This document shows positions 1 through 27,362 of a DNA stretch of 37,676 nucleotides, piece by piece. The notes beneath the pieces are model-generated. The model was not told the DNA's origin. It did no database searches and saw only the letters and a program-made list of their open reading frames with translations. The stretch's first letter is position 1. Every line of letters starts with the position of its first letter. The translations under genes were made by a program, and so were the position numbers. The stretch comes from a bacterium (lineage in GTDB: Bacteria; Patescibacteriota; Saccharimonadia; Saccharimonadales; UBA4665): positions 1 through 37,676 of the forward strand of contig JBAXMV010000001.1 in the NCBI GenBank assembly GCA_037134095.1. The letters run 5' to 3'.

Positions 1-2
1 CG

Positions 3-8632: not shown

Positions 8633-8723
8633 TATTAGGGCTGCAATGAATTTATATATATTTTAACATATAAATGTATGTTGGTCGATATCGTTAATAA
8701 AACTCATAAATCATAGAATTAAG

Positions 8724-8752: not shown

Positions 8753-8765
8753 CAATCTGTTACGG

Positions 8766-8840
8766 TGGGGCGTGGCCAAGTGGTAAGGCACTGGTTTTTG
8801 GTACCAGCATTCGGGGGTTCGAATCCCTCCGCCCCAGCCA
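8766..8840 (+). tRNA. tRNA-Gln (anticodon UUG), CCA encoded
   Basis: I folded the cloverleaf by hand. The acceptor is TGGGGCG/CGCCCCA (U1:A72, discriminator G73, as in bacterial tRNA-Gln), with D arm GCCA-AGTGGTA-AGGC. The anticodon stem is CTGGT/ACCAG with loop TTTTGGT, the T arm is GGGGG-TTCGAAT-CCCTC, and the 3' CCA is encoded. Confidence 0.93.
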
Positions 8841-8841
8841 C

Positions 8842-8902: not shown

Positions 8903-8905
8903 TTA

Positions 8906-9133: not shown

Positions 9134-9200
9134 ATCTGTTATTAGTGGATTCATACAGGTACAAGGTACCGCAAAGAATTATTAAGCCTAGCTTTTACGT

Positions 9201-9230
9201 TTGAATGTTCGAGTAAATGTTACCTACAAT
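9201..9230 (+). promoter_or_regulatory. Candidate promoter for the defence operon (TTGAAT-18 nt-TACAAT)
   Basis: The -35 TTGAAT is at 9201-9206 and the -10 TACAAT at 9225-9230, about 37 nt upstream of the ATG at 9267. This is a sequence match only. Confidence 0.3.
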
Positions 9231-9266
9231 GGTTTTTATATCTATAAAAGGGTTATAATAACCAGT

Positions 9267-10721
9267 ATGAAAATTAAACAGAGTACGCCGTATGCACCTT
9301 TACTAATAGAATCCATGCGTTCTCTAGGTTATTCCTTTGATACGGCAATTGCTGATTTGATTGATAATAGTGTTAGCGCGCAAGCAAAAAACATTAGTAT
9401 TCTACTCGATCCTTCGGATGATCCACAGCTTATAATTTTTGATGACGGTAATGGTATGGGCTCCGAAACATTAGAAGAAGCACTGCGTTTTGGAAGTCGA
9501 GGGCCTAACGAAACCCGAAGTGAGTTCGATCTTGGTCGATTTGGACTTGGACTTAAATCCGCTTCACTATCTCAATGTAGACGACTTATTGTTGCAAGTA
9601 AGCATGACGGGGCTCTCTGTTGCTATTCTTGGGACTTAGATGAAGTCGAGAAGACAGGTGATTGGTCAGTATTAGAATATTCACAAGATGAAATTATTCA
9701 ACTTCCTAATATTAGCCTATTTGATTCAGTAGAATCAGGCACCTATGTCTTACTTCAGAATTTTGACAGAATTTCTGCTTCTTCTAATGACGTAAAGAAG
9801 ACCCTTGATACTCTAATCGAAACAGCGGAAGATCATTTATCATTAGTTTTTCATCGTATTATTTCAGAAGACAAAGTCAGTATTTTTATTAATGGCCGAC
9901 TTATCGAGCCGAAAGATCCCTTTTTAGAAAATCATAAGTCTACACAACGTTTACGAGAGCAAAGCATTGCTATAGACGATAAAATGATCACCCTACAACC
10001 CTACATTTTGCCTCACCGGAATAAGCTATCTAGAGAAGATTTAAAAAAAGTTGGAGGCGCAGACGACCTTCGGACAAATCAAGGCTTCTATATTTACCGT
10101 TGCAAACGACTTATCATCTGGGGAACTTGGTTTAGATTGCTGAGCAAAGAAGAGTTGAATAAATTGGCACGCGTAAAAGTTGATATACCCAATTCAATCG
10201 ACGAAATTTGGAGTATTGATGTGAAAAAAAGTACAGCAAATTTACCAGAGAAAATTAGAAAAAATCTATATGGGAGTATTAAGGAATCAGTTTTTGGTAG
10301 CAAGAAAGTAATTGAGTACCGAAGTAAGCTTCGTAGAGACGAAGATATTCATTACGTGTGGCAAAGACTTACGGAAAGAGATGGTAGCATAGCTTATTCA
10401 ATCAATCGAGATTTGCCTCAAGTTCAAATGTTAACCGAAAACTTAGACAAAAATGGTATGCGAGTGCTTGAAACGCTTTTGCAAAATGTAGAAAATAACT
10501 TTCCGGCAAGTAGCGTATATCTTGATGTAGCAGATGGTGATTTACATTCATCGGTTGAAGATATAAATAAGTTGGCGGATGATCTCGAGGCTCAGCTACT
10601 ATATGCAGAGCAGCTTGGGTTTACTCATGATGAGCTTCTAAGCGTTTTACTTAAAACGGAGCCATATTCAAGGAACGAACAGTTGATAAATATGTATTCT
10701 AGAAGTCAGGAAAATAAATGA
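9267..10721 (+). CDS. GHKL (Bergerat-fold) ATPase, MORC/paraMORC-like (HATPase_c_3 type)
   Basis: It has the N-box AIADLIDNSVSA, G1 box FDDGNGMG and G2 box GRFGLGLKSAS. I prefer the ATG at 9267 (MKIKQSTPYAPLLIESMRSLGY) over the listed TTG at 9201. The stop overlaps the next start (ATGA at 10718-10721). Confidence 0.8.
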   Translation: MKIKQSTPYAPLLIESMRSLGYSFDTAIADLIDNSVSAQAKNISILLDPSDDPQLIIFDDGNGMGSETLEEALRFGSRGPNETRSEFDLGRFGLGLKSASLSQCRRLIVASKHDGALCCYSWDLDEVEKTGDWSVLEYSQDEIIQLPNISLFDSVESGTYVLLQNFDRISASSNDVKKTLDTLIETAEDHLSLVFHRIISEDKVSIFINGRLIEPKDPFLENHKSTQRLREQSIAIDDKMITLQPYILPHRNKLSREDLKKVGGADDLRTNQGFYIYRCKRLIIWGTWFRLLSKEELNKLARVKVDIPNSIDEIWSIDVKKSTANLPEKIRKNLYGSIKESVFGSKKVIEYRSKLRRDEDIHYVWQRLTERDGSIAYSINRDLPQVQMLTENLDKNGMRVLETLLQNVENNFPASSVYLDVADGDLHSSVEDINKLADDLEAQLLYAEQLGFTHDELLSVLLKTEPYSRNEQLINMYSRSQENK

Positions 10722-13405
10722 GTAGTGAAATTAAGAAATTTAAAGACATTGTCGGCAATATGGTAGGCATTGGAAACTCAGACTTATTGATTAGTGATAC
10801 AGATGTAGATAAAGCCATCGAAGATTTGTATTCCATTCGAGATAAAATGGGGATCAAAATTTCTGAAGCTGAGAAGGTTAAAGCAAGGAATGAATTACTA
10901 GCTAATATTAAAGTTAGACTTGAACCTGGCGTAGCAATTGTACCCACCGACCATAAAAAATGGTTTGAAGAGAGTAAGAATGAAATTATTTTTGAATATT
11001 GGGATAGATTTAAGACATATCTAGCTCAAGATAAAGGCATTGAATTAAACGTTATCTCAAAAATGGACAAAGTCTCAGATCAAGTAGTCGATCTGCTTGG
11101 CGACCCTAGGCGCGAAGAAGAAGAGCAGCGTCGTGGCTTGATAATCGGAGATGTTCAATCAGGCAAAACAATAAATTATAGCGGTATTATCTGCAAAGCT
11201 GTTGATGCCGGTTTTCGTATTGTGATACTTATGACAGGAACTACTAATGATCTTCGCTCCCAGACACAAATACGTTTAGACGAAGCGTTTTTGGGTATTG
11301 ATACAAGGGCAGCTGCTAAAGGAGGTGGGCGAGTTTTAGTTGGAGCAGGAAAATACAATCCGATCCCAACACCGATCGCATTTACATCTGTAGAAAAAGA
11401 TTTTAGCATTAGTGCAGTTAGGCAAATGACAACATCTCTGTCCAAAAACGCAAACGATAAACCAATGTTGTTTGTTATTAAGAAAAATGTTTCGGTTCTT
11501 AAAAACCTTCTCGAATGGATGGAGTCCTCTGGCAAATATGGAGATCAAAAAATTGATAACTCAGTGCTTGTCATTGACGATGAGGCTGATTACGCTTCAA
11601 TTAATACGAAAATAGCAGGTTCGGAACGAAGCAAAACAAACTATTTGATTGAAAAAATACTAAATATGTACCGATTTGCTAGCTATTCAGGCTTTACTGC
11701 TACACCTTATGCAAACATTTTCATCGATCCCGAAACCGACGAAGAATTGAATACAGAAGGACTTTTTCCCAAAGATTATATTTACTCTCTGAATTCACCA
11801 GACACTTACATAGGTGCTAGAAATATTTTCCCCAAAAATGCCACTTACCATTTTATCCTTCGAGATATAGAAGATGGTGAAGAATTTTATCCGTCTAAAC
11901 ACAAAAAAGACGATGACTTTAGTGTCCTGTCGGAAAGTTTAAAAAAGGCTGTGCGTACTTTCTTAATAGCTAATGTCATAAGGGATTTACGAGGAGATAA
12001 GACTGAACACAGGTCGATGATGATCAATGTTACCCGTTTTATTAATACGCAGAAGCTCGTCAGGAAAGCAGTTGCAGACTATGTAGGAGATATAAAGAGA
12101 TCGATCAAAACTTACGCGTTTCTACCCCAAGAAAAAGCGTTACTAGACGAAGAGTTGAATTTACTTTCTAAAACTTTTGCAGACGAATATTCATCACTTG
12201 ATTTCTCATGGGAACAAATACAGGTAAATCTATTCGGGTCAGTTAATGAAATTGAGGTACTTGCTACCTATGGCGGCGGTGATGATCTCAATTATCACGA
12301 GAACCCAGATGGTCTCAGAGCAATAGTTGTAGGAGGGATGAGACTTTCTCGCGGTTTGACGCTTGAAGGTTTAATTGTAACTTATATTTATCGTAACTCA
12401 ATGGCATATGACACCCTAATGCAGATGGGGCGTTGGTTTGGCTACAGACCAAACTATGGTGATATTTGCCGAATTTGGATGGATAAAAATAGTCAAGACT
12501 GGTACGAATATATATCAGATGCAACGGACGAATTACGTGCAGAAGTAAAACGCATGCGTGATATTGAATCCACGCCTTTAGACTTTGGCCTTAAGGTACG
12601 TAATGACACTGATATGAAGCTTACGATCACCGCACGAAATAAAATGCGAACTGCCAAAGAGAAATCTATCAATGTTTCGCTAAGTAAGGCGTACATTGAA
12701 ACGGCTTTCATTCATAACGATGCGAAAAAGAATAAAGCAAATCTAGCTGCGGTAAGTAACTTGATCAACAGCACTAATTTTGATAAATCAGACAATCAAT
12801 ATATAGCAGAACACGTTGATAAGAACTTAATAGTAAGATTACTTGAAACTATTGATATGCCGCCTACAAACGTACAATTTGACCCACTCTCGGTTGCTAA
12901 TTTTATAGAGCAATATGCAGGTGACGAGCTCAATGATTGGAATGTGGCTATAAAATCAGGAGATCACAAAAAAACTTACACCCTGCCGAACGGAATTTCA
13001 ATCAACCCAAATGATCGTTTGTTTGAATTAATTAGAGAAGATTGTGTTGTAAGAATGAATCGACGCAGGCTAGGAAGCCAAGGAGATGCGAAAACAGGTC
13101 TTAATATTGCCCAATTAGAATTGGTAAAAGAGATTGTCACAAGTAATCCAAATCGTAATTCATCGAATATTAACGACAAGGACTACTTCGCAATCAGTCG
13201 AAAACCACTGCTCCAAGTTTATTTTATTCAGCCTCGTCAAAAAAGCGAAGACTGGGATCGCCTTGCAGAATTTGATTCAATCCCATTAATAGGTTTTAGC
13301 GTTGGTATACCACCACTTGGTGACATTAAAACAAGGAATATTAGATATCAGATTAACAAAATACATCAGGACTTTGGTGGCATCGAGGAATTTGAAGATG
13401 AGTAA
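10718..13405 (+). CDS. Z1 domain protein with SF2 helicase-like P-loop NTPase core
   Basis: It has Walker A GDVQSGKT, DEAD-like Walker B VIDDEADYAS, motif III GFTATPYAN and the Z1 signature LMQMGRWFGYR. It is 895 aa, typical for Z1 proteins in R-M-linked operons. Confidence 0.8.
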   Translation: MSSEIKKFKDIVGNMVGIGNSDLLISDTDVDKAIEDLYSIRDKMGIKISEAEKVKARNELLANIKVRLEPGVAIVPTDHKKWFEESKNEIIFEYWDRFKTYLAQDKGIELNVISKMDKVSDQVVDLLGDPRREEEEQRRGLIIGDVQSGKTINYSGIICKAVDAGFRIVILMTGTTNDLRSQTQIRLDEAFLGIDTRAAAKGGGRVLVGAGKYNPIPTPIAFTSVEKDFSISAVRQMTTSLSKNANDKPMLFVIKKNVSVLKNLLEWMESSGKYGDQKIDNSVLVIDDEADYASINTKIAGSERSKTNYLIEKILNMYRFASYSGFTATPYANIFIDPETDEELNTEGLFPKDYIYSLNSPDTYIGARNIFPKNATYHFILRDIEDGEEFYPSKHKKDDDFSVLSESLKKAVRTFLIANVIRDLRGDKTEHRSMMINVTRFINTQKLVRKAVADYVGDIKRSIKTYAFLPQEKALLDEELNLLSKTFADEYSSLDFSWEQIQVNLFGSVNEIEVLATYGGGDDLNYHENPDGLRAIVVGGMRLSRGLTLEGLIVTYIYRNSMAYDTLMQMGRWFGYRPNYGDICRIWMDKNSQDWYEYISDATDELRAEVKRMRDIESTPLDFGLKVRNDTDMKLTITARNKMRTAKEKSINVSLSKAYIETAFIHNDAKKNKANLAAVSNLINSTNFDKSDNQYIAEHVDKNLIVRLLETIDMPPTNVQFDPLSVANFIEQYAGDELNDWNVAIKSGDHKKTYTLPNGISINPNDRLFELIREDCVVRMNRRRLGSQGDAKTGLNIAQLELVKEIVTSNPNRNSSNINDKDYFAISRKPLLQVYFIQPRQKSEDWDRLAEFDSIPLIGFSVGIPPLGDIKTRNIRYQINKIHQDFGGIEEFEDE

Positions 13406-14315
13406 TCCTATTGATCGTATTAGAAAGCTTCTCGAAGACCACACTAATGAGTCCTACCAGAGATATAGTGCAGAACACCCCCTAGATATTTATCTGGGTA
13501 CTGACCAATATGGCCGCAAAAGTTTGGCATTAATAATTGACGCTCGACGAGAAAGAATTACTTCAACTAAAACCATTGATGCTCAATTTTTTAAACGTGA
13601 TGACGGACAGCTAATGCTAGTATTCTCACTTATTGACGATCAATTAAAAGACATCTTTTATAAGTTTTGTGAGGACATTATCGAGAGTACTAGATTAAGC
13701 AATCAGGTAGAAGGATTTGCACCTGTCGTGGATCGTTGGAACACATGGATTAATTTTTTTTCAAAATCAGTACTCCCACTTTCAGAAAATGAAGTACTAG
13801 GTTTAGTCGGAGAAATATATTTCTTGCAAAATGTGATGATTGAAAAGTATGGTAAAGAACTTGCGTTAGACTCTTATATAGGTACAGATCGGGCGCATAA
13901 AGATTTTGAGGTAAAAAACACTTGGTATGAAATCAAAACCATTCACAACGGAATTCGAGCCGTTAAAATAAGTTCAATAGAACAACTAGATGCACCTAAT
14001 CCAGGCAATCTTGAGATAATTACATTTGACCAAAGCACAGCAACGTATGAGGGTAATATTACCTTAAATAAACTGATATCAGGCTTCAGGAGTACCCTAG
14101 AACGCAAATGGCAGCTTCTGTTTGATGAAAAAATGCGTAGAGCAAGTTATATAGAAGATGAACGTTATGACGAATATAATTTTGTGTTTGTAAGAATTGA
14201 CGAGTATTCCGTAGCTGATGATTTTCCAAAACTAACCAAAGAATTACTTCCTATGGGCGTTACTAAAGCCAGTTACGAGATAGATATATCTGTAATCGAA
14301 AGGTTTCGAACGTAA
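13398..14315 (+). CDS. PD-(D/E)XK motif protein (DUF4420-like putative nuclease)
   Basis: It has the core GLVGEIYFL...HKDFEVKNTWYEIKT (E...D-x-E-x-K). I prefer the start at ATG 13398 (MSNPIDRIRKLL), which overlaps the Z1 stop by 8 nt. The listed 13302 start would lie deep inside the Z1 CDS. Confidence 0.65.
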   Translation: MSNPIDRIRKLLEDHTNESYQRYSAEHPLDIYLGTDQYGRKSLALIIDARRERITSTKTIDAQFFKRDDGQLMLVFSLIDDQLKDIFYKFCEDIIESTRLSNQVEGFAPVVDRWNTWINFFSKSVLPLSENEVLGLVGEIYFLQNVMIEKYGKELALDSYIGTDRAHKDFEVKNTWYEIKTIHNGIRAVKISSIEQLDAPNPGNLEIITFDQSTATYEGNITLNKLISGFRSTLERKWQLLFDEKMRRASYIEDERYDEYNFVFVRIDEYSVADDFPKLTKELLPMGVTKASYEIDISVIERFRT

Positions 14316-14317
14316 CT

Positions 14318-16414
14318 ATGAATTTAGAAGATTTTCGCACAGATTGGGTAAGTGACTTACGGGTTGCCGCAGAAGCTAATCAAAGTGATCCTCATAGTGA
14401 GTTTGTTATTGATGCAATTGATCAGCTTCAAGAAGCAGAAGAAGTTGAAAACGTTGAACTTGGTTACTTCGAGGGCATTGGACCAAATAGAACCAAACTA
14501 ATGGTCGACGGCTATGCTTTTGATGTCGTTGATAAATCATGTGTCTTACTTCTGAGCGATTTTTCGAACAGTGGCGATCTCCAAACGCTTACTCGAACTG
14601 ATATTGATCGACTATATAACAACATGCGTAATCTTTTAGAAGCTTCCCTTAATGGCTATATTGTAGCTAACAAATTCGAAGAGAGTAGCATTGGATATAC
14701 CTTTGCAGTTGAAGCTAAACGACTTTTCGATAATGGTGAAATATCCAAGTTTAGGTTTTACATTCTTACCGACAAAAAGCTCAGTGAAACGGTAAAGAAT
14801 ATCCGAAAGGAACCCATAAATGGTAAGAGCGTAGACTTAAATGCATGGGATATAAATCGTTTTTATCATTTATTTACTTCAACTCAAGGTAAGGAAGAAA
14901 TTGAAATAGACGCCTCGACATTGCTTGGCGGTGGGATCCCATATGTCAGTGCTACCAAAGGAGAAGATTACTCTGCTTACCTCGCTGTAGTTCCAGGGCA
15001 GTTTCTTGCAGATATTTATCTTGAGTATGGTTCTAGGCTTCTTGAAGGAAATGTACGTTCATTTTTGAGCATACGTGGCAAAGTTAACAAAGCAATTCGC
15101 GGTACTATCTTACAGCACCCAGATCTATTCTTTGCTTATAATAACGGAATTGCAGCGACAGCAACATCAATTGAAACTACTAACATAAATGGTAACCATG
15201 TAATTACGAAGATTAATGATATGCAGATAATAAACGGCGGTCAGACTACTGCCTCGATTGCCAATGCTGTAATTCAGGATAAAGCTTCTCTTGAAGATGT
15301 GTATATACCGATGAAGTTATCTGTATTGGATCACGATAAAGCAAAAGATATGATCCCCAATATCTCCCGTAGTGCCAACAGCCAAAACAAGGTAGATGAA
15401 GCAGACTTCTTTTCTAACCATCCTTATCACGTGCGTATTGAGGAGTACTCTAGGCGAATACTTGCTCCACCAGTAGATGGGAATCAGTATCAAACAGCGT
15501 GGTTCTATGAACGTGCACGCGGCCAGTATGTACAAGAGCAGATGAAACTTACACGTTCAGAACGAAAACGCTACCAACTCAAAAACCCTAAGGCACAACT
15601 ATTACGTAAAGTTGATGTTGCCAAGTTTATCAACTCATATGAACAGAAGCCACACATCGTAAGTCGAGGCGCTCAGTTCAATATGAGAAACTTCGCAGAT
15701 TCTATTGGTAAACAATGGAGCCCGACTGATCAGAATACTAGCTTTAACGAATACTATTACAAGAAGTTAATTTCACTAGCCATAATATTCAAGACTACTG
15801 AGAAGATCGTAACTGCTCAGCAATGGTATCAGGAAATTAAAGCATATCGTGCGAACATTGTTACATATAGCATAGCTGTTATTATGCATTCGATTGAAAA
15901 GAAATACCCCGGTAAAACGATAGATTTTTTGCGAATATGGAATACCCAGTCGATTAGTCCACAACTTGAAGCTCAGATAGTTGAAACAACTCGTGAGGTA
16001 TTTGACTTCATTACACGTGACGAGAGGCCAACATTAAATGTTACACAGTGGTGTAAGCAAGAAGACTGTTGGAAACGTGTACAGGAATACAATTTTACGA
16101 TACTCGACAACTTTGCTGAATCGCTGGTGAATGCAAGCGATGAGCAAGAAGAAAAAGCTATTGCTCAGAAAGAGCAGAAAGTAAGCAATCAGATCAGTGC
16201 CGAAATTGAGATTATAAATCTGGGAACAGACTACTGGAAAAAAGTGTTAGATTTTGGCCGGAATGATAGGCTACTCAGTGAAATGGAAGATGGCCTTTTG
16301 AATGTAGCTGCTACTTTTGACACTACTGGTCGAGTTCCCTCGGACAAACAAGCAAAATTGATTATGCAAATTCGAAATCGCTTATTTGATGAAGGCTTGT
16401 CACGAAACATTTAA
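14318..16414 (+). CDS. AIPR (abortive infection phage resistance) family protein
   Basis: It has the conserved AIPR core motifs FFAYNNGIAATA and MQIINGGQTTASI, is 698 aa long, and starts 2 nt after the preceding stop. Confidence 0.75.
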   Translation: MNLEDFRTDWVSDLRVAAEANQSDPHSEFVIDAIDQLQEAEEVENVELGYFEGIGPNRTKLMVDGYAFDVVDKSCVLLLSDFSNSGDLQTLTRTDIDRLYNNMRNLLEASLNGYIVANKFEESSIGYTFAVEAKRLFDNGEISKFRFYILTDKKLSETVKNIRKEPINGKSVDLNAWDINRFYHLFTSTQGKEEIEIDASTLLGGGIPYVSATKGEDYSAYLAVVPGQFLADIYLEYGSRLLEGNVRSFLSIRGKVNKAIRGTILQHPDLFFAYNNGIAATATSIETTNINGNHVITKINDMQIINGGQTTASIANAVIQDKASLEDVYIPMKLSVLDHDKAKDMIPNISRSANSQNKVDEADFFSNHPYHVRIEEYSRRILAPPVDGNQYQTAWFYERARGQYVQEQMKLTRSERKRYQLKNPKAQLLRKVDVAKFINSYEQKPHIVSRGAQFNMRNFADSIGKQWSPTDQNTSFNEYYYKKLISLAIIFKTTEKIVTAQQWYQEIKAYRANIVTYSIAVIMHSIEKKYPGKTIDFLRIWNTQSISPQLEAQIVETTREVFDFITRDERPTLNVTQWCKQEDCWKRVQEYNFTILDNFAESLVNASDEQEEKAIAQKEQKVSNQISAEIEIINLGTDYWKKVLDFGRNDRLLSEMEDGLLNVAATFDTTGRVPSDKQAKLIMQIRNRLFDEGLSRNI

Positions 16415-16455
16415 TAGAGGTAAACACAAGGGGTATTGTGCTATAGTTATAACAT

Positions 16456-17751
16456 ATGCTTAAAGTAATTGAAACGTTCAGTGGAATTGGTGCTCAGTCA
16501 AAAGCACTTAAGAATATTGGGTGTAACTTTAAGATTATCGGAACAGCAGACTGGGACATACATGCGATCATTGCATATGATCTTATTCATAATGGTAAAC
16601 AAGATTTATCTCTGTACGAAAAAGCTACTCGTGAAGAGATGCTACAAAAATTAAAGAAATATACCCTCAGTATTGACGGTAAAGTTGCAGCAGACTGGAA
16701 AAATGTCAAAATATTGAACATGAAAGTGCTAAAGAGGCTTTGCGCTGCCATTGATAGAACCAACAACTACGTAAGTGTAACCGATATGAACGGGGCACTC
16801 TTGCCTGTTGATATGGATGCACTAACTTATTCCTTCCCTTGCCAGGACCTATCTGTAGCTCATGCATGGCATGGTAAAACCGAGGGTATAGATCGAAGCG
16901 CAGCAAACCGATCTAGCCAACTGTGGGAAATTGAACGTATCTTAATGGAACGTAAAGCAAGCCCAAGACCAATGCCAAAATTTCTTCTAATGGAAAATGT
17001 ACCCAATATAATTTCTAGTTCTCATAGCAAAAATTTTGATGAATGGAAGCAATCACTTAACGATCTAGGCTACTATAATCGTTTCAATCTACTCATTTCA
17101 AACAATTTTGGCACACCTCAAATCCGTAAAAGAGCATATCTAATGAGCTTCTATACGGGTGGCGATAAAAAGCTGGAATCTAAGCTGGATAAGTATTTTG
17201 CAACTAATAACTTAGAAGATGTACGCAAAAAACCTACAGAACTCTCTAAGTTTTTGAGGCTTAATTACGAAGAGGGCTCCTTTAGACAAGAGGCCGACGA
17301 ATCAGTGCCTAACGACACCCCTTCACGTCGAGATATATTTATAAAGAGTGTTAAATTATTCGACGGCATAAGTTATTCTGGTTATGTTAAAACGATCACC
17401 ACAAAGCAAGATCGAAGACCTTGCTCCGGTGTCATTGTGTATGACAATAAGCGCGTTGGTAAGAGCACATACAGATACTTAACGGCAAGAGAATGTCTTT
17501 TATTAATGGGGTTCGAAGATAAAGATTATGAAGCACTAATTGAAGGTAATTTTAAGAAAAATATAACGACAGACTTTTTCACTACGAGAAAGATAGTCAA
17601 GATGGCTGGCAATAGCATCGTCGTACAAGTATTAGAAGAGGTGTTCAAGCAAATGATATATGTAGATGAGCACATCCTCTCTAAGGCTACCGCCGAGTTA
17701 CCGATCGAAGAGTTGCAATTAGTCGGAGAGCATAGCCTCGCTACAATCTAG
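16456..17751 (+). CDS. DNA (cytosine-5)-methyltransferase
   Basis: It has a full motif set: I ETFSGIGAQ, IV TYSFPCQDLS, VI LLMENVPN, VIII TPQIRKRAYLMS, IX YLTARECLLLMGF and X AGNSIVVQVLE. A long variable region (TRD) lies between VIII and IX. Confidence 0.92.
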   Translation: MLKVIETFSGIGAQSKALKNIGCNFKIIGTADWDIHAIIAYDLIHNGKQDLSLYEKATREEMLQKLKKYTLSIDGKVAADWKNVKILNMKVLKRLCAAIDRTNNYVSVTDMNGALLPVDMDALTYSFPCQDLSVAHAWHGKTEGIDRSAANRSSQLWEIERILMERKASPRPMPKFLLMENVPNIISSSHSKNFDEWKQSLNDLGYYNRFNLLISNNFGTPQIRKRAYLMSFYTGGDKKLESKLDKYFATNNLEDVRKKPTELSKFLRLNYEEGSFRQEADESVPNDTPSRRDIFIKSVKLFDGISYSGYVKTITTKQDRRPCSGVIVYDNKRVGKSTYRYLTARECLLLMGFEDKDYEALIEGNFKKNITTDFFTTRKIVKMAGNSIVVQVLEEVFKQMIYVDEHILSKATAELPIEELQLVGEHSLATI

Positions 17752-17769
17752 TGGCATGCTACATCTCCT

Positions 17770-18981
17770 ATGAGCATTTATGAATTTGATGACTTAGCGA
17801 ACGCTCCATTGATAATCGATGCGGTATATAAAAGTAAAAGTACACTATTTGGAGACGGTCCGCTTGGTAAATTATTACCGAAGATAGGCAATCAGGGTGG
17901 TTTTAGGTGTGTTAGAAGACAGGACAGAAGCGGTCAACTTGCGTACATTGTTTTGTACACCACTGGCACAGAAATAGATTGGCCTGATTCACTTGATGTG
18001 GAGACGGGTGTATGGCGTTATTTTGGCGACAACAGAACCCCAGGGAAGTCATTACACGACACTTCCGCTAAAGGTAATCTCTATTTGAGCGAGATTTTTG
18101 CTAAGATCGATTCGCCAACTGAAAGAGCTGATATACCTCCATTCCTAATTTTTCAGTGGGCCGGGAATCAATTTGACGCAAAGTTTCTTGGAGTAGCTGC
18201 GCCAGGTAACCCAAATATTCCACCAGATAAGGAATTGAATGCTATATGGAGATCAAAGAAAGGAAGTAGATTTCAGAATTATGAAGCGTACTTTTCAGTA
18301 TTAGATACTGGCCGCGAAGAAATATCAAAAGAGTGGCTCAAACTCCTGATAAGTGATCATGAAAACAGTCTTTCATTTGCCCCTACGGCATGGAAGCAAT
18401 TTATAAAATTTGGTAGACAGGGCGTTAAGCCTCTTTTATCACCAAGAGGCTCCGAAATTCCGAACAAAGAACAACAATTGCCTCAAGATCCAAGTGAAAT
18501 AAAATTATTGCAGAAGATTCGAGACTATTACAAGGACAATCCATTCGATTTTGAGCTATGCTCTACAAAGATTGTCCAGATGATGGACAATAATTTTGGA
18601 CTGTTTGAGTTAACTCGTCCATGGCGTGATGGAGGTAGAGATGCTATAGGAAAATATAGAGTTGGTAATAATCATAGTCCCTTGTTAGTTGAATTCGCAC
18701 TTGAAGCTAAATGTTACTCGATGGACAATTCAGTTGGAGTCAAACCAATGTCGAGGTTAATCTCTAGGCTAAGGTATCGTCAGTTTGGTGTTTTAGTGAC
18801 TACTAGCTACGTACACTCACAAGCATATAAGGAGATTGTTGAGGACGGTCACCCCGTACTGATAATAAATGCGGCTGATATTGCTAAAATTCTTCGAAGT
18901 CAAGGCATCAACCATCATAACGTCGACGTATGGCTCAGCCAAATTGGGCAAAACAACATAGAAAATGAGAAAGTCGATTAG
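17770..18981 (+). CDS. Restriction endonuclease with a C-terminal Mrr-type PD-(D/E)XK domain and a putative SRA-like N-terminal reader domain
   Basis: The C-terminus GGRDAIGKY...LVEFALEAKCY...FGVLVTTSYVHSQAYKEI...PVLIINAADIAKIL matches the Mrr_cat pattern (D...ExK plus G.lvTTs.fs). The N-terminal AYIVLYTTGTEIDWPDSLDVETGVWRYFGDNR...HDTSAKGNLYL is patterned like the SRA core (AYSxVLxGGYxDDxDxGxxxxYTGxGG...DQKLxxxNxAL). Confidence 0.65.
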   Translation: MSIYEFDDLANAPLIIDAVYKSKSTLFGDGPLGKLLPKIGNQGGFRCVRRQDRSGQLAYIVLYTTGTEIDWPDSLDVETGVWRYFGDNRTPGKSLHDTSAKGNLYLSEIFAKIDSPTERADIPPFLIFQWAGNQFDAKFLGVAAPGNPNIPPDKELNAIWRSKKGSRFQNYEAYFSVLDTGREEISKEWLKLLISDHENSLSFAPTAWKQFIKFGRQGVKPLLSPRGSEIPNKEQQLPQDPSEIKLLQKIRDYYKDNPFDFELCSTKIVQMMDNNFGLFELTRPWRDGGRDAIGKYRVGNNHSPLLVEFALEAKCYSMDNSVGVKPMSRLISRLRYRQFGVLVTTSYVHSQAYKEIVEDGHPVLIINAADIAKILRSQGINHHNVDVWLSQIGQNNIENEKVD

Positions 18982-18983
18982 TT

Positions 18984-20339
18984 ATGACCATCTCCAAAAC
19001 AGATTACATGATGTTCCTCAAGCAACCTGCATGGTTGTGGCTAAAAAAGAATGACCCAAAAAAATTGCCACCAATTGATGAAAACACCCAGGCTTTATTT
19101 GATGCAGGTCATCAATTTGAACCTTATGCTGAATCATTATTTCCTGAAGGCGCTACGATTGGTTTTTCTGATTACAAAGAATATCTATCATTGCCGCAGA
19201 GAACACAAGATGCAATTAATAAGGGTGAACCTGTTTTATTTCAACCTCGTTTTGAATGGCTAGAGTTTACTTGCATATGTGACATAGTTAGCTTTGTAGT
19301 TGATAATGAAGTCGATCTCTATGAGATAAAAGCCAGCACTAGCGCCAAAGTCGAACACGAATTCGATCTTGCATTCCAGACTGCGGTGCTTGAAGGAGCG
19401 GGTCTGAAGGTACGAAACATTTTTGTTATTCACGTCAATAACCAGTACGTTCGAAATGGTCCGGTTGAGGCAGACAAGATAACAATCATCCAGGATGTAA
19501 CGAAAAAGGTTCGTAGCAGGGATGAAGTTACTGCCAAAAATATGTCGCTTGCTGTAGCTGCAGCTAAGCAGAAAACCATGCCCGATCCTTCCCCGACGCT
19601 TGCCAAGCTGGGCTCAAAAAACGATTGGCTTCAAGTTTATGAAAATATTGTGCCTCAAGCACGTATTGAATACCCTGCCAATACTAGACCTACGATCAAG
19701 CACGAATATATAAAAGCATTCTTGGAAGATCTTACGTATCCACTTTACTTTCTTGACTATGAAACCATGAAGGGACTTATCCCTTACTTTGATGGACATC
19801 GACCATACCAACAAGTTCCGTTCCAGTATTCGCTCCACATTATTCAGGAGCTTGGAGGAGATGTTGAGCATCGTGAATTCTTACACCGCGAAAATTCAGA
19901 TCCCTCACGATCACTAGTTGAGAAACTAATATATGATGTAGGCAAAGAAGGCACTATCTTAGTTTGGTACGAACAATTTGAAAAGAGCCGTAACAGCGAG
20001 CTTGGTGAAATGTACCCAGAATATATTCAAGATATGGAATCTATAAATGACAGAGTTGTTGATCTAATCATTCCATTTAAGAAGAAATGGTACGATGATC
20101 CCCGCTTTGAAGGCAGTGCAAGTATTAAACATGTACTGCCAGTACTATGCCCAGACTTAAGCTATAAATCATTAGGGATACAAGAGGGCGGATCCGCACA
20201 ACGTCTTTGGATGGAAGCTGTGCTAGACGATAAACGCTCTGATCAAAAGGAAACAATACTCAGTGACCTAATTGAATACTGCAAACTTGATACATTAGCC
20301 ATGGTAGAAATATTCAAAAAGCTCTTGGAGGTAACATGA
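18984..20339 (+). CDS. DUF2779 domain protein (N-terminal RecB/Cas4-like PD-(D/E)XK nuclease fused to a C-terminal RNase H-fold/DEDD-like domain)
   Basis: The N-terminus ISKTDYMMFLKQPAWLWL and VDLYEIKAST (ExK) mark the nuclease. The DUF2779 signature is YPLYFLDYETM...PYQQVPFQYSLHI, and a late acidic motif YCKLDTLAMVEIF follows. It starts 2 nt after the REase stop. Confidence 0.7.
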   Translation: MTISKTDYMMFLKQPAWLWLKKNDPKKLPPIDENTQALFDAGHQFEPYAESLFPEGATIGFSDYKEYLSLPQRTQDAINKGEPVLFQPRFEWLEFTCICDIVSFVVDNEVDLYEIKASTSAKVEHEFDLAFQTAVLEGAGLKVRNIFVIHVNNQYVRNGPVEADKITIIQDVTKKVRSRDEVTAKNMSLAVAAAKQKTMPDPSPTLAKLGSKNDWLQVYENIVPQARIEYPANTRPTIKHEYIKAFLEDLTYPLYFLDYETMKGLIPYFDGHRPYQQVPFQYSLHIIQELGGDVEHREFLHRENSDPSRSLVEKLIYDVGKEGTILVWYEQFEKSRNSELGEMYPEYIQDMESINDRVVDLIIPFKKKWYDDPRFEGSASIKHVLPVLCPDLSYKSLGIQEGGSAQRLWMEAVLDDKRSDQKETILSDLIEYCKLDTLAMVEIFKKLLEVT

Positions 20340-20566
20340 GCGACAGCACAATATGTAAAAATTGCGGGCATGACGAGTCAAAATGTAATCCAGATGAGAC
20401 ATATCGCTGAGCAAAAGAACTGATTGGATTTAAGAAAACAGCATCTGCTGCACTATTACAGCGCGATCTTAAAATAAGCTACGCCATGTCCGCTGAGATA
20501 CTAGAAAAGCTAGAGTCCTAAGGACTAATTGGCCCAGCAATCGAATTGACGGCAAAGCAACAATGA
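20336..20566 (+). pseudogene. Decayed small gene: CxxC Zn-ribbon plus FtsK-gamma-like winged helix, with two in-frame stops
   Basis: A single frame from ATG 20336 (ATGA overlap with the DUF2779 stop) reads MSDSTICKNCGHDESKCNPDETYR*AKELIGFKKTASAALLQRDLKISYAMSAEILEKLES*GLIGPAIELTAKQQ*. The segment ASxxLLQRxLxIxYxxAxxIxxxLExxGxIGP is the FtsK gamma (KOPS-reader) pattern. It is interrupted by TGA at 20408 and TAA at 20519. Confidence 0.6.
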
Positions 20567-20604
20567 ATGGTTAGCGAGGCTTTAACAGCAAAATTGCAGA
20601 TAGA

Positions 20605-20913
20605 ATGAATTTAACTATCGAGTGCATTCGTCTCTATTATCTTGCAAAGGATAGCCCACTATTTAGTACTCTGAAACGTCATGGCAACTTTTTTGATATA
20701 TTTCAGGATTTCAGGGGCTTCGATGAGTTCTTTTTGCTACAAGATGCTGTATCCGAAGACTTTCAATCAGTAAATATCGCTGTGCCTTTTGATGAATTTA
20801 TGTCACCGCCAATTCCAAAAAACCTAGATGAGTATAGGAATTATCTGGATTCGACGGCAGAATTTGTGATAAAAAGAGGTCAAAGAATTGAGAAATATGT
20901 AAAGAGTGCATAA
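20605..20913 (+). CDS. Hypothetical protein (102 aa), possibly a 5'-truncated remnant
   Basis: The ORF carries no motif I recognise. It is acidic and aromatic-rich (FFDIFQDFRGFDEFFLLQDAV), has no SD, and its frame opens only 10 codons upstream of the ATG. Confidence 0.35.
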   Translation: MNLTIECIRLYYLAKDSPLFSTLKRHGNFFDIFQDFRGFDEFFLLQDAVSEDFQSVNIAVPFDEFMSPPIPKNLDEYRNYLDSTAEFVIKRGQRIEKYVKSA

Positions 20914-20985: not shown

Positions 20986-21015
20986 AAACTCGTCAGTTGG
21001 ACGAGTTTTTTATTT
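20986..21015 (+). terminator. Rho-independent terminator at the right end of the island (may also serve the convergent lipase gene weakly)
   Basis: A 9-bp stem AAACTCGTC/GACGAGTTT with loop AGTTG is followed by TTTATTT. It lies between convergent genes ending at 20913 (+) and 21025 (-). Confidence 0.6.
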
Positions 21016-21024
21016 GACGTGGAT

Positions 21025-22278
21025 TTAAGAAGCGGGTATTGGTAGTGGCTGGTTGCAGGTGTTGGGATTGATTTGTTGGGTGAAACGATCGTTGATCCAG
21101 TTGATTACGTTGGGAGAGATTACAGATGGAATTTGCTGGTGCGATACATTGTTAATCCATAAGGTGTTGATGTTTGATCCGGCTGCACAAGCTCTAGATA
21201 TGTATTGTGCTGTGGTAGCCGGCAAAACTACTTGATCGCTCAAGCTTTCACTTATCTGAATTGGAATTGTTTTAGGCAGTACTGGCGCCGTTTGCATTTT
21301 TATAATATCTTGCCAACGTGAATTATTTAAGAAATCTGAAGTGAAGAATCTCTGACCAGTTTTTTGTCGAACTATTCCGCTCACGGAAGACTCAGCTATA
21401 CATTGTCGGCTCAGCTTCACATATTGATCCTGTACCTTACTGTTGATTATATTGTAGGTACTTAGCGTAGGATAGGCAGTCTTCCAACCTGCAACAAGTT
21501 GCGGTCCAATTACCCAGCTGGCTAGAGTGTCGTATTGTGCATTTAATAAGGATTCAAGTTGAGCTGCAGGTGCAGATGCTGATGTTCCTACAAGTTGGTA
21601 TTCTGGCATATATTCAGAAGCATAAAGTGAACTGAAAAGTGCCGAATGACCTCCTTGAGAATGACCCCAAATTGCATACTGTTTGCTGCTATTATTATTC
21701 GCAATATAGCTTACTGCGCGTACGCTATTTAATACATCATGAGCCTCAGATTTACCAACCAAATACTCGCTTATTCCTGGCGTGCCTAAACCTGCATAAT
21801 CAGTTGCGGTCACTATCCAGCCTTTAGCCAGCATACTACTAATCCAAGGTAGTCTCGATGATGATACTGGTTGTTCCTGCCTAGATGGAGCACAGTTATC
21901 GCCTCCGCCCAATGTGCCATGAGCCCAAGCTACCACTGGATGGGGAGAAGCAGCAATCGTGGCCGGCACAAAAATCATTCCTGAAGTAAATGTAATATCA
22001 TCATTGGCTTTTTGGGTCCTATAAAGTACACGGTAAGCCGTACCATTTTCGATGCCTGTTTGAATAATCTCTTTGCGGAGTATTTCCCCTAAAGGACCTT
22101 GCGTCTGTAATCCGGTAGTATCATAAAATCCGCTTATGGATTTTTGAAACTTATCTATCTTGTATGAATTCCAGAAATATACGCCTGCACTAAATACAAT
22201 AATAGCTAAAATAAATATTAGTACGCGTTTGAACATTTTATGCACATGTTTTTTATTATTTTGCTTATGCATACTCAT
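21025..22278 (-). CDS. Membrane-anchored alpha/beta hydrolase, secretory-lipase (LIP)-like
   Basis: It has an N-terminal TM anchor (VLIFILAIIVFSAGVYFW) and the nucleophile motif WGHSQGGHSALF. The 417-aa size is typical of LIP-family proteins. Confidence 0.6.
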   Translation of the reverse strand: MSMHKQNNKKHVHKMFKRVLIFILAIIVFSAGVYFWNSYKIDKFQKSISGFYDTTGLQTQGPLGEILRKEIIQTGIENGTAYRVLYRTQKANDDITFTSGMIFVPATIAASPHPVVAWAHGTLGGGDNCAPSRQEQPVSSSRLPWISSMLAKGWIVTATDYAGLGTPGISEYLVGKSEAHDVLNSVRAVSYIANNNSSKQYAIWGHSQGGHSALFSSLYASEYMPEYQLVGTSASAPAAQLESLLNAQYDTLASWVIGPQLVAGWKTAYPTLSTYNIINSKVQDQYVKLSRQCIAESSVSGIVRQKTGQRFFTSDFLNNSRWQDIIKMQTAPVLPKTIPIQISESLSDQVVLPATTAQYISRACAAGSNINTLWINNVSHQQIPSVISPNVINWINDRFTQQINPNTCNQPLPIPAS

Positions 22279-22361
22279 ATTCTACTCTATAAGCCTGCTA
22301 GCTAAAATGTTTATTTTGCTTACTAAATACTGTTAAAAAGAAAAACCTAGTAAAAGCTTTT

Positions 22362-22390
22362 TTGTTGAATAACTATCATCTTGCTAGAAT
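22362..22390 (+). promoter_or_regulatory. Candidate promoter (TTGTTG-17 nt-TAGAAT), followed by an SD AAGGAG at 22397-22402
   Basis: The hexamers have a 17-nt spacing, and the SD lies 9 nt upstream of ATG 22412. Confidence 0.4.
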
Positions 22391-22411
22391 GTCAAAAAGG
22401 AGCACTAAGAT

Positions 22412-22876
22412 ATGAGTGAGATATTGCATAGAGTTTATGAACATTCTGATGCTGCTAAATCAAAAATAGCTGTTGGTCTAGCGATGGTAGCCGTTGCGGC
22501 AACTGTCCCAGCTACAGCTGAAGCTGGATCTGCAACATCTGATTACAATGGAGTAGCAGGTATTTTTCACCAACACGTAGGGTATAACCGAGCCACTGGT
22601 GAAGCAAATTGTACTATAGATCTCGATACCTATGATTCACAGCGTAAATCTTTTATCACGATTTTACGTGTTCTTAAATATCAAAAAGGGAAATGGCTAC
22701 AAGACAATAAATTTCCAGAAGTTGATAAATTTGTCTCTTATAAAGACAATACCACCCACGTATCAGCTACATCAAAGGCTCATTACAATAAAGCTACTGT
22801 CAAAAAAGAAGCCGCAAAATATCCAATACGTTTATCTTGTGAGCATGGTGAAGGCGGAATTTCTGTCGGACTTTAG
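22412..22876 (+). CDS. Hypothetical exported/N-terminally anchored protein
   Basis: A good SD precedes it. A hydrophobic segment IAVGLAMVAVAATVPATAEA looks like a signal peptide or anchor. No domain was recognised. Confidence 0.5.
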   Translation: MSEILHRVYEHSDAAKSKIAVGLAMVAVAATVPATAEAGSATSDYNGVAGIFHQHVGYNRATGEANCTIDLDTYDSQRKSFITILRVLKYQKGKWLQDNKFPEVDKFVSYKDNTTHVSATSKAHYNKATVKKEAAKYPIRLSCEHGEGGISVGL

Positions 22877-22886
22877 ACAATAAAAA

Positions 22887-24350: not shown

Positions 24351-24423
24351 AATTTACCCTCCGTTGTTCATACTATATTAGTATAAACTTTTTTTGGATA
24401 AATCGCACTGTATATAGGGCTAG

Positions 24424-25074
24424 TTAGCAAGGAATATTTTGGGTTTTAGCAAATTGAATTGCTATTTCACGCTTAGCGTTATTGGCAACGGCTAAATCTT
24501 GAGCAAGTTGAGTGGGCTTAGCTGAAATATCTTCGATTGGTGTTTTGGCAATAACATCTGAACACTGGTGATTATTGCTCATAGTATTTACATCAAAATG
24601 TGGTGTTAGATTACTAAGTTTTGCATTTGCAGGGTAGCAAGATACTTCGTTTGCGGCCGCGAGCTTAGAGCTTTTTGCATAAATCTTTGCATTATCGCTC
24701 AAATATTTATAATTTTCAGGTAAATTCGGCTCATATATTCCTCCTCCAGGGCCTACTATTTTAGCCGCCTTAGAATAGTAGGTAGATTCAGCCTGTAATT
24801 CTGCCGAACAAGCACCATGAGACTTCAAACTATCTACGTTTTCGAGCATTTTGTATCGATAAAAATTTTTACTATTGGTAACAGCAATTTCGTGGCCGGC
24901 CTTATCATTTCGGACAGCCATTGAATTGCCGCCCTCATAAACACCAAAAGTAGTTGCGGCTATAGCAATTCCTGCTAAAAGCTTTCCAGCGGGGGTTTGA
25001 ACGTAGCGTTTAGCGCTCTCCATATATTGAGCTATGGTTTCTTTAGGGGGCATATTATGCAATTTGGACATCAC
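24424..25074 (-). CDS. Hypothetical N-terminally anchored, Cys-containing extracytoplasmic protein
   Basis: A single TM segment (LLAGIAIAATTFGV) follows a tail of about 30 aa. Five Cys lie in the predicted external part. No domain was recognised. Confidence 0.45.
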   Translation of the reverse strand: MMSKLHNMPPKETIAQYMESAKRYVQTPAGKLLAGIAIAATTFGVYEGGNSMAVRNDKAGHEIAVTNSKNFYRYKMLENVDSLKSHGACSAELQAESTYYSKAAKIVGPGGGIYEPNLPENYKYLSDNAKIYAKSSKLAAANEVSCYPANAKLSNLTPHFDVNTMSNNHQCSDVIAKTPIEDISAKPTQLAQDLAVANNAKREIAIQFAKTQNIPC

Positions 25075-25158
25075 GCTATTTTAAACTATTTATTGCTTAT
25101 GGTCAATAGTTTCATGGATTATTTGTCACGGTTATAACTAAGGTCTATAATCAGGCAA

Positions 25159-25728: not shown

Positions 25729-25729
25729 T

Positions 25730-26656: not shown

Positions 26657-26661
26657 ACAAC

Positions 26662-27315: not shown

Positions 27316-27362
27316 AATTGTTAAGTTTACGCGTCAATGACAAATTTTGCTATAGTATTAAT

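Follow-up and report, generated by a model that had tools for sequence, protein, structure and literature searches.

What does a gene encode that begins directly downstream of a C5-cytosine DNA methyltransferase (MTase): the restriction partner of that MTase, or an enzyme that requires the very base, 5-methylcytosine (5mC), that its neighbor would make? The question is raised by a locus within the window considered here, by which we mean the whole 37,676-nucleotide stretch of DNA that was analyzed. The explanation that we favor, at a probability of roughly 0.8, is that the gene encodes a stand-alone, 5mC-dependent restriction endonuclease (REase) of the MspJI family, accessory to a restriction-modification (R-M) cassette made up of the MTase and an upstream GHKL/Z1/DUF4420/AIPR module.

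The reading frame itself is uninterrupted from ATG to stop, and the peptide strings quoted in the initial annotation of this locus are all found in its 403-residue product, AYIVLYTTGTEIDWPDSLDVETGVWRYFGDNRTPGKSLHDTSAKGNLYL as residues 58–106 and GGRDAIGKY, EFALEAKCY and FGVLVTTSYVHSQAY in the C-terminal third, where that annotation had rightly seen an Mrr_cat PD-(D/E)XK domain (Table 1). In Pfam, residues 31–215 match RE_AspBHI_N (PF18062) with E = 1.2e-48 and 165.6 bits (cutoff 27), and the PADLOC model for methyl-directed REases (mREase_II) returns 1.1e-141. Among PDB sequences, phmmer finds AspBHI (4oc8) at E = 4.6e-96 over residues 3–392, a collinear alignment with 165/379 (~44%) identities, as well as the LpnPI N-domain (4rzl, E = 4e-40) and MspJI (4f0p, E = 2e-20). 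Matches of this strength lie well outside what chance would give. Comparison of an AlphaFold2 model (pLDDT 85) with known structures, a check proposed at the outset, gives AspBHI, MspJI and LpnPI as the best Foldseek matches, with 4oc8 at the top (7.4e-43), MspJI at 1.8e-25, and target-normalized TM scores of 0.83–0.88 on the AspBHI and LpnPI N-domains. With a short linker between its two domains, the product also falls within the family's length range of ~388–456 aa. By sequence, key residues and modeled fold, then, it is a member of the MspJI/AspBHI/LpnPI family, the handful of characterized members of which, MspJI, AspBHI and LpnPI among them, cleave DNA only if it bears 5mC or 5hmC (PMC2938202, PMC3946040, PMC4499157). 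The original proposal of a modification-dependent enzyme of the MspJI/AspBHI type is supported by this homology (the Pfam and 4oc8 matches, pocket and catalytic residues, and fold); its "Type IV" label is not, as REBASE-style usage places MspJI-type enzymes in Type IIM (PMC3874153), in keeping with the PADLOC mREase_II match.

Table 1. Coordinates of the nuclease gene, its neighbors and the edges of the island
Feature	Position	Strand	Basis
tRNA-Gln(ttg), left island edge	8766..8840	+	ARAGORN
GHKL/MutL-like (paraMORC-type) ATPase, MzaB-like	9201..10721	+	Pfam HATPase_c_3 3e-34; PADLOC MzaB 6.4e-70
Z1-domain superfamily-II helicase-like, MzaC-like	10718..13405	+	Pfam Z1 1.8e-70; NCBIfam MzaC 3.5e-142
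DUF4420 predicted PD-(D/E)XK nuclease, MzaD-like	13398..14315	+	Pfam DUF4420 6.4e-50
AIPR protein, MzaE-like	14318..16414	+	Pfam AIPR 1.3e-98, AIPR_N 1.4e-30
C5-cytosine DNA methyltransferase (Dcm), 431 aa	16456..17751	+	Pfam, NCBIfam, motifs
AspBHI/LpnPI-like modification-dependent (Type IIM) REase, 403 aa	17770..18981	+	ORF, Pfam, phmmer, PADLOC, AlphaFold2/Foldseek, dN/dS
N-terminal SRA-like 5mC-recognition domain, ~residues 1–215	17770..18414	+	Pfam residues 31–215; LpnPI N-domain 4e-40; Foldseek
D73 pocket codon	17986-17988	+	residue map vs AspBHI
Y84 pocket codon	18019-18021	+	residue map vs AspBHI
D87 pocket codon	18028-18030	+	residue map vs AspBHI
C-terminal Mrr_cat PD-(D/E)XK nuclease domain, residues 257–374	18538..18891	+	Pfam Mrr_cat 8.1e-12
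D291 catalytic codon	18640-18642	+	aligned with AspBHI D282
E312 catalytic codon	18703-18705	+	aligned with AspBHI E303
K314 catalytic codon	18709-18711	+	aligned with AspBHI K305
DUF2779 protein, RecB-like N-terminal region	18984..20339	+	Pfam DUF2779 4.7e-42
Best terminator-like hairpin, ends co-directional block 9201-20913	20986..21008	+	nine-pair stem and T-run; scan total not above shuffled expectation

The residues expected to hold a flipped base and to cut DNA are conserved. W71, D73, Y84 and D87 align with AspBHI W69, D71, Y82 and D85 and are invariant in 22 homologues, as are D291, E312 and K314, and the D-X20-EAK motif that these last three define (D291-X20-E312-A313-K314) is intact. 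In the AspBHI structure paper, D71, Y82 and D85 are equated with UHRF1 D474, Y483 and S486 (PMC3946040), and the earlier hand alignment of this segment to the SRA core proves correct, D73, Y84 and D87 being the counterparts of that AspBHI trio. The roles of the residues around flipped 5mC are documented for this family (PMC3946040, PMC4499157); in AspBHI, alanine mutants of key residues lose activity, and a catalytic triad has been proposed (PMC3946040). The pocket residues of the window nuclease, together with D291, E312 and K314, match those alanine-dead positions or the proposed triad.

AspBHI (Azoarcus sp. BH72, PDB 4OC8; Type IIM, YS(5mC)NS, cutting at N12/N16) shares with the window nuclease an SRA-like N-domain, an Mrr-cat C-domain, the D/Y/D pocket and D-X20-EAK, at 388 versus 403 aa, but its Loop-B3 reads S41-R42-Q43, with R42 essential, where the window nuclease has G40-N41-Q42. 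Loops 2B, 6C and 78 differ as well, so the sequence context of AspBHI is not transferable. LpnPI (Legionella pneumophila, N-domain PDB 4RZL; C(5mC)DG) has G41-N42-M43 in Loop-B3, and its G-N pair, essential there, is kept in the window nuclease, N41 being the equivalent of N42. Of the four DNA-contact residues essential in LpnPI, N27, N42, R98 and R137 (PMC4499157), the other three align with L26, A100 (with K101 next to it) and F135, and Loop-2B is one residue shorter than in LpnPI. An attempt to deduce the sequence context of the window nuclease from LpnPI and AspBHI mutagenesis was dropped, only Loop-B3 being LpnPI-like and the remaining loops unlike those of characterized enzymes. Residues at the positions of LpnPI N27, R98 and R137 determine specificity and do not define the family. 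Every member of the subclade, even at 63% identity, keeps the unusual loop residues (Loop-2B KSKS-TLFGDGP, Loop-78 QWAGNQFDAK), and because of this constancy the substitutions, as read from the alignments, argue for altered specificity and not for decay; DNA recognition by this nuclease may nonetheless be reduced or different.

The neighboring gene does encode a 5mC MTase, as initially annotated, with matches to Pfam DNA_methylase (7.7e-47) and TIGR00675 dcm (9.8e-39), and its stop codon is separated from the nuclease ATG by 18 nt (17752–17769). Scans for a separate promoter before 17770 gave promoter and terminator counts not above shuffled expectation and so carry no weight either way. The motifs FSGIG, PCQ, ENV, QIRKR and GNS are all intact. 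In overall architecture the MTase is nearest to M.MpeI/M.SssI. Because M.MpeI is its best PDB match (4dkj, E = 4.4e-42, full length), and because a CpG methylase would clash with LpnPI- or AspBHI-like contexts, CpG specificity was considered; it was rejected, as the CG-reading residues of M.MpeI (Q141, F302, E305, A323 and S325) are replaced by H, I, S, V and V, and CpG shows no marked depletion in the flanks of the cassette, the observed/expected ratio being 0.82 in the window and 0.84–1.2 in other cassette hosts. Both genes are under purifying selection, with dN/dS of ~0.01–0.05 for the nuclease versus its orthologues and 0.07 for the MTase, figures that come from the comparisons with loci L001 and L002 only, since dS is saturated in most pairs.

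Upstream of the MTase lie four further genes. The segment 9201–17751 has the same composition (GHKL, Z1, DUF4420, AIPR, Dcm) as MZA and as the operons of MORC/paraMORC ATPase, SFII helicase, novel RE, AIPR, DCM and Vsr that, in the available portion of Iyer et al. 2008 (PMC2292703), Iyer, Abhiman and Aravind describe as R-M systems; appended AspBHI-like or DUF2779 genes do not figure in that portion. With scores far under the NCBIfam equivalog cutoffs (475 vs 1500 bits for MzaC, 90 vs 420 for MzaD, 330 vs 1050 for MzaE), the module is only a relative of MZA proper. Downstream of the nuclease, the DUF2779 gene (NCBIfam UU173 family 3.1e-20; TIGR03491 RecB-like 7.4e-4; start placed at 19011 by the gene caller) is a recurrent seventh member of the cassette, found in the same place in L005, L086, L088 and L090. 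The start of the GHKL ATPase is placed at 9267 by the gene caller on the identical contig L081. At the island's right edge, no att-like direct repeats copying the 3' end of tRNA-Gln were found. There is no flank synteny with the five closest genome loci, which indicates that the cassette is mobile and that relatives in Saccharibacteria/Patescibacteria are no proof of the host of the window.

The gene content of related loci bears most directly on how nuclease, MTase and upstream module belong together. The GHKL-Z1-DUF4420-AIPR-C5-MTase order is kept in more than 10 related loci, and in all nine close cassettes for which upstream DNA exists (nine/nine) HATPase-Z1-DUF4420-AIPR-Dcm is present. 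Dcm homologues with 73–80% identity (L092, L094 and L095) retain the four-gene module while the nuclease slot varies: L092 carries Vsr and no AspBHI-like gene, L094 has nothing in that slot (and fragmented Z1 and DUF4420 genes), and L095, which also has Vsr, carries a convergent AspBHI-like gene that shares just 42% identity with the one in the window. Two unrelated AspBHI-like lineages are thus seen to flank near-identical Dcm cassettes. In L003, Dcm and the AspBHI-like nuclease are 70% and 77% identical to those of the window and the four upstream genes only 37–47%, a hint that the Dcm-nuclease pair is able to travel as a unit.

The family is large, with 5,830 clusters at E ≤ 1e-10, and a broader survey covered 80 AspBHI-like loci, one per species. 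In 51/80, the nuclease gene has a C5-MTase no more than 5 kb away, often inside a complete 5mC R-M system of the Sau3AI-like, Eco47II-like or Z1/AIPR kind; 26 loci have MutH/Sau3AI-like REases, 16 have Vsr, 8 each have Z1 and AIPR, and 6 have Eco47II-like REases. The specificity-loop class of the AspBHI-like nuclease tracks the type of partner. The survey matches both the published LpnPI locus and the finding of Zheng et al. 2010 that about half of the MspJI family adjoins 5mC MTases (PMC2938202), so that the adjacency of writer and reader, pointed out in the initial annotation, is not new, having been reported in 2010.

Two of these published loci are instructive parallels. LpnPI adjoins a complete GGNCC R-M system (PMC2938202), and the logic is shared: a 5mC-dependent nuclease stands beside a full 5mC R-M system, the site of which must stay uncut (PMC2938202). 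The partner there is an Eco47II-type REase, whereas in the window it is the GHKL/Z1/DUF4420/AIPR module. It was for LpnPI and M.LpnPI that the argument for mutually exclusive sequence contexts was made in 2010 (PMC2938202). MspJI (Mycobacterium sp. JLS, PDB 4F0P/4R28; 5mCNNR) is a more distant relative (23–24% identity; 456 aa, with loop insertions) that likewise adjoins a C5-MTase gene, M.MspJIP, together with a vsr gene that has no counterpart in the window. M.MspJI had no detectable activity (PMC2938202), while the window MTase, judging from its motifs and dN/dS, looks intact.

Might the nuclease instead be an integrated part of one multi-protein system, acting as effector or sensor with the GHKL/Z1/DUF4420/AIPR and DUF2779 proteins, or tuned by resident methylation? 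The compactness of the locus would suit such an arrangement. All seven cassette genes are co-directional with gaps or overlaps of at most 41 nt. At least nine related cassettes repeat the order HATPase-Z1-DUF4420-AIPR-Dcm-AspBHI, and in five of them DUF2779 comes directly next; at least three arrangements (L007/L011, L009 and L095) combine an AspBHI-like gene with a Z1-type cassette; and L003 keeps the Dcm-nuclease pair next to upstream genes that have been exchanged or have diverged widely. Against integration, the five-gene cassette exists without an AspBHI-like gene (L092, L094), AspBHI-like genes sit equally beside Sau3AI-like systems, Eco47II-like systems or no visible system, and in vitro AspBHI, LpnPI and MspJI each work without partner proteins (PMC2938202, PMC3946040, PMC4499157). 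We regard an integrated system as improbable.

Slimmer still is the chance that the MTase or the nuclease is functionally dead, which would remove the problem of writer/reader coexistence and possibly the second arm of defense with it. The inactivity of M.MspJI is a precedent (PMC2938202), the window nuclease lacks equivalents of LpnPI-essential R98 and R137, and the broken genes of L094 indicate that such cassettes decay. Set against this are the intact MTase motifs and the intact catalytic and pocket residues of the nuclease, a dN/dS of at most 0.07 for both genes, the constancy of the odd loop residues across the subclade, and six independent metagenome contigs that carry an identical nuclease sequence; the Vsr genes that accompany close Dcm homologues in L092 and L095 imply, moreover, that MTases of this lineage do make 5mC. 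Finally, a conventional Type II REase with a novel recognition domain, cognate to the adjacent MTase and blocked by its methylation, is very improbable in spite of the intact C5-MTase so close upstream and of the precedent of MspJI, itself initially taken for such an enzyme (PMC3874153): the ~44% full-length identity is to the 5mC-requiring AspBHI, with the 5mC pocket conserved, no MspJI-family member is known to cut unmodified DNA (PMC2938202, PMC3946040, PMC3874153, PMC4499157), co-inheritance is not obligate, the L095 Dcm being paired with a nuclease of another lineage, and the MTase has a different constant partner, the HATPase-Z1-DUF4420-AIPR module, which precedes close Dcm homologues in every case with upstream DNA to inspect, whether or not an AspBHI-like gene follows (L092 and L094 lack one).

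For the stand-alone accessory enzyme, analogy with its relatives suggests how it would work. [quoted passage not shown] The upstream GHKL-ATPase/Z1-helicase/DUF4420-nuclease/AIPR module would have the adjacent MTase as its modification arm, and together the two make up a predicted R-M system that is related to MZA and belongs to the MORC/paraMORC class; the AspBHI-like gene was probably recruited as an accessory at the 3' end of this mobile cassette. One arm of the island would thereby act against DNA without the host 5mC mark, and the other against DNA in which 5mC or 5hmC falls in different contexts, for instance that of phages that carry multispecific MTases or hypermodified cytosine, or DNA with foreign methylation patterns. 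We assume that the specificities of writer and reader are compatible, that is, that they would not overlap. The initial annotation had drawn both corollaries, mutually exclusive contexts and an island that attacks unmethylated as well as foreign-methylated DNA, and they would follow logically from this reading.

A bolder proposal is that the repeated, independent recruitment of MspJI-family genes beside C5-MTase systems has been selected, and that the seven-gene cassette is a co-adapted, two-faced immune module. Under such co-adaptation, the subclade loops would have evolved to spare the site of the partner MTase, and phages that evade the 5mC R-M arm through methylation or hypermodification of their cytosine would meet the nuclease as a hard-wired second line of defense. 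Even a physical interaction of the nuclease with the GHKL/Z1/AIPR/DUF2779 proteins is conceivable on this view. We consider this proposal doubtful.

The stand-alone reading does not overturn current understanding of these enzymes. What is new is a seven-gene mobile cassette conserved in metagenome genomes of the Saccharibacteria/Patescibacteria type and a nuclease subclade with its own set of specificity loops. In 2010, the adjacency of MspJI-family genes and 5mC MTases was called "unusual and calling for further investigation" (PMC2938202); to this the survey adds that the partner is as a rule a complete 5mC R-M system, of one of several unrelated types, that loop classes track partner type, and that the same Dcm cassette has acquired different AspBHI-like lineages. 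If its specificity is distinct, the clade could yield a Type IIM enzyme with a new context for 5mC/5hmC mapping. For annotation, the value lies in reading the gene 3' of the MTase as a probable methylation-dependent cutter and not as its restriction partner, and the island would then hold two restriction activities of opposite sense.

The open reading frame just downstream of the methyltransferase gene carries, at the position it was assigned in the initial annotation, every peptide string quoted there, and was identified by direct sequence searches, remote-homology methods being unnecessary. Pfam places an RE_AspBHI_N domain at residues 31-215 (E=1.2e-48) and the expected C-terminal Mrr_cat domain at residues 257-374 (E=8.1e-12), and the methyl-directed REase model of PADLOC scores 1.1e-141. 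Among PDB sequences, the protein is collinear with AspBHI (4oc8) over residues 3-392 (E=4.6e-96; 165/379 aligned positions identical) and also matches the LpnPI N-domain (4rzl, 4e-40) and MspJI (4f0p, 2e-20). An SRA-like N-terminal region had been proposed by eye, and structural comparison bears it out: with an AlphaFold2 model (mean pLDDT 85.3), the AspBHI, LpnPI and MspJI structures are the first Foldseek matches in the PDB, and the N-domains of AspBHI and LpnPI, taken alone, superpose on it with TM 0.83-0.88 (normalised to target). The neighbor, 18 nt upstream as described, is indeed a C5-cytosine methyltransferase, hereafter Dcm (Pfam DNA_methylase 7.7e-47; TIGR00675 9.8e-39).

The flipped 5mC is held in AspBHI by D71, Y82 and D85, with W69, and alanine at D71, Y82 or D85 abolishes activity (PMC3946040; PMC4499157). 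Alignment gives D73, Y84, D87 and W71 as the equivalents, the same as those implied by the by-eye match to the SRA/YDG core, and places the D-X20-EAK catalytic motif at D291...E312-A-K314; across 22 aligned homologues, pocket and motif do not vary. The gene is under strong purifying selection, with dN/dS ~0.01-0.05 against its orthologues in L001 and L002 (dS near saturation), and six metagenome contigs encode the identical protein. All sequence-testable features of the MspJI/AspBHI/LpnPI family being present, the nuclease is, by homology, an additional member; the observation is confirmed, and homology likewise supports its interpretation as a modification-dependent enzyme. By homology, its SRA-like pocket would take flipped 5mC or 5hmC, loops 2B, B3, 6C and 78 would read a few flanking bases, and a tetramer would cut ~N12/N16 downstream; sites made by the resident methyltransferase would have to be spared. 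Through the GHKL/Z1/DUF4420/AIPR arm and the nuclease, the island would target DNA without the host mark and DNA with 5mC/5hmC elsewhere.

The question of whose partner the METHYLTRANSFERASE is was addressed by two complementary surveys, one centered on the nuclease (one genome per species scanned, giving 80 loci with relatives) and one on homologues of Dcm at 73-80% identity. Wherever upstream DNA exists, these Dcm homologues are preceded by the four-gene HATPase-Z1-DUF4420-AIPR module, whereas downstream content varies: Vsr only in locus L092, nothing in L094, and, in L095 (10337-11974; Dcm 73%), Vsr and a convergent AspBHI-like gene only 42% identical to ours, which indicates that the same kind of nuclease was recruited independently from a different lineage. 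The constant partner of the methyltransferase is therefore the GHKL/Z1/DUF4420/AIPR module, and the AspBHI-like gene is an accessory, recruited more than once. The alternative that the nuclease is an ordinary Type II REase cognate to the adjacent methyltransferase is thereby removed. One observation pulls against the accessory view: in L003 (Patescibacteria MAG, 1446-11182) Dcm (70%) and nuclease (77%) are far closer to those of the window than are the four upstream genes (37-47%), which suggests module exchange between restriction genes and a Dcm-nuclease pair evidently able to move as a unit. In L094 (3313-6753) the Z1 and DUF4420 genes are fragmented and Dcm is intact (77%); this cassette looks like an R-M system decaying toward an orphan methyltransferase.

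Of the 80 loci, 51 have a C5-MTase no more than 5 kb from the AspBHI-like gene; among the 44 with 5 kb or more of sequence to either side, the figure is 29. Other common neighbors are Vsr (16), Z1 (8), AIPR (8) and Eco47II-like REases (6), the commonest, at 26 loci, being a MutH/Sau3AI-like endonuclease of ~490 aa, whose gene usually comes after that of the nuclease and before Dcm. The typical companion of an AspBHI-like gene is therefore a complete 5mC R-M system, and these systems belong to several unrelated types. At L070 (~9965-12300) two adjacent ORFs match the AspBHI-like profile; they represent either a tandem duplication or one gene split in two.

The five closest loci (69-88% identity), all in Saccharibacteria/Patescibacteria MAGs, share the HATPase-Z1-DUF4420-AIPR-Dcm-nuclease order, as do three more metagenome contigs (L086, L088, L090); on a short fourth (L091), a partial Dcm alone is visible directly upstream of the nuclease. 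Because the flanks of these cassettes have nothing in common with those of the window, and T4SS and recombinase genes adjoin two of them, the cassette is mobile. DUF2779 recurs right behind the nuclease in L005, L086, L088 and L090 (57-73% identity), is absent from L001 and L003, and is inverted and divergent in L002. Between the window and L001-L005, L086, L088 and L090, Z1 (55-70%) and DUF4420 (58-82%) diverge faster than HATPase and AIPR (77-88%), and may be specificity-bearing or arms-race components.

Features of the island and its edges
Feature	Position	Strand	Remarks
tRNA-Gln	8766-8840		precedes seven-gene block
Resolvase-like ORF	8906-9079	-	57 aa
GHKL/MutL-like ATPase	9201/9267-10721	+	gene 1
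Z1 helicase-like protein	10718-13405	+	gene 2
DUF4420 protein	13398-14315	+	gene 3; predicted PD-(D/E)XK nuclease
AIPR protein	14318-16414	+	gene 4
Dcm	16456-17751	+	gene 5
AspBHI-like nuclease	17770-18981	+	gene 6; ATG to stop, 403 aa
DUF2779 protein	18984-20339	+	gene 7; RecB-like N-terminal region, UU173 family
FtsK gamma-like frame	~20415-20522	+	ends ...LLQRDLKISYAMSAEILEKLES*
DUF6994 C-terminal fragment	20605-20913	+	last 102 residues only; profile positions 133-226 of 226
Terminator-like hairpin	20986		3' of DUF6994 fragment

Seven genes, closely spaced and all in one direction, lie 3' of tRNA-Gln, that of the nuclease being number six, and the flanks are housekeeping genes (CysS, Gnd, cell-envelope genes); neither a vsr gene nor a second C5-MTase was found in the window. 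Genes 1-5 match the MzaB-E models, yet well under NCBIfam equivalog cutoffs, and have the composition of the predicted R-M operons (MORC/paraMORC ATPase, SFII helicase, novel RE, AIPR and DCM, often Vsr) described by Iyer, Abhiman and Aravind (2008; PMC2292703). The ORF just past the tRNA resembles a serine recombinase/resolvase N-terminal fragment (Pfam Resolvase E=0.0011, under cutoff) and was probably left behind by the element that brought the island. At the right edge, the DUF6994 ORF is a truncated gene, and the frame before it (PF09397, 2.1e-7, barely over cutoff) seems to derive from a DNA-translocase gene that has decayed. GpC obs/exp is 1.42-1.45 in the flanks (1-8700, 21000-37676), a strong excess, and 1.18 in the island (9201-20913), a smaller one; CpG obs/exp is 0.82-0.83 versus 0.98. 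This gap is consistent with a horizontal origin.

The sequence specificity of neither enzyme is predictable from these data (SPECIFICITIES). The closest solved relative of Dcm is the CpG methylase M.MpeI (4dkj; 4.4e-42, full length). A CpG-specific resident methyltransferase would be awkward, since methylated CpGs provide sites of the LpnPI and AspBHI types. Against CpG specificity, the CG-reading residues of M.MpeI (Q141, F302, E305, A323, S325; PMC10899764) have H, I, S, V and V as their counterparts, and CpG is not markedly depleted (obs/exp 0.82 in the window flanks, 0.84-1.2 in other cassette hosts). Since TRD core motifs are conserved across nine cassette methyltransferases, these probably share one site. 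Loop-B3 of the nuclease, G-N-Q, resembles G41-N42-M43 of LpnPI, in which N42 is essential and M43Q behaves as wild type (PMC4499157), and is unlike S41-R42-Q43 of AspBHI; the essential LpnPI residues N27, R98 and R137 are replaced by L26, A100 (K101 next) and F135, with Loop-2B shorter by one residue. These unusual loops are kept in the whole subclade, to as low as 63% identity, which speaks for a distinct specificity and against decay. When the 80 loci are compared, each loop class goes with a type of partner system: GCEN[AS]G and ..GRD[IV]Q with Sau3AI, GCSNSG and ..GWDV[KQ] with Eco47II, KIGNQG and QWAGNQFDAK with Patescibacteria Z1/AIPR. Because shared ancestry confounds this correlation, it is only suggestive of co-adaptation.

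A 5mC writer beside a 5mC-dependent cutter, the point stressed in the initial annotation, is known rather than new: the founding paper (PMC2938202) reported about half of the MspJI/AspBHI/LpnPI family beside 5mC methyltransferases, gave the LpnPI/M.LpnPI (GGNCC) example with the same writer/cutter compatibility argument, and wrote that the association 'calls for further investigation'. We consider it unlikely, at roughly one chance in five, that the linkage is selected and that the cassette forms a two-faced immune module whose parts are co-adapted and perhaps physically integrated. The seven-gene arrangement (MORC/Z1/AIPR-type R-M plus DUF2779) and the subclade's loop set, for neither of which a description was found in the literature examined, are incremental additions.
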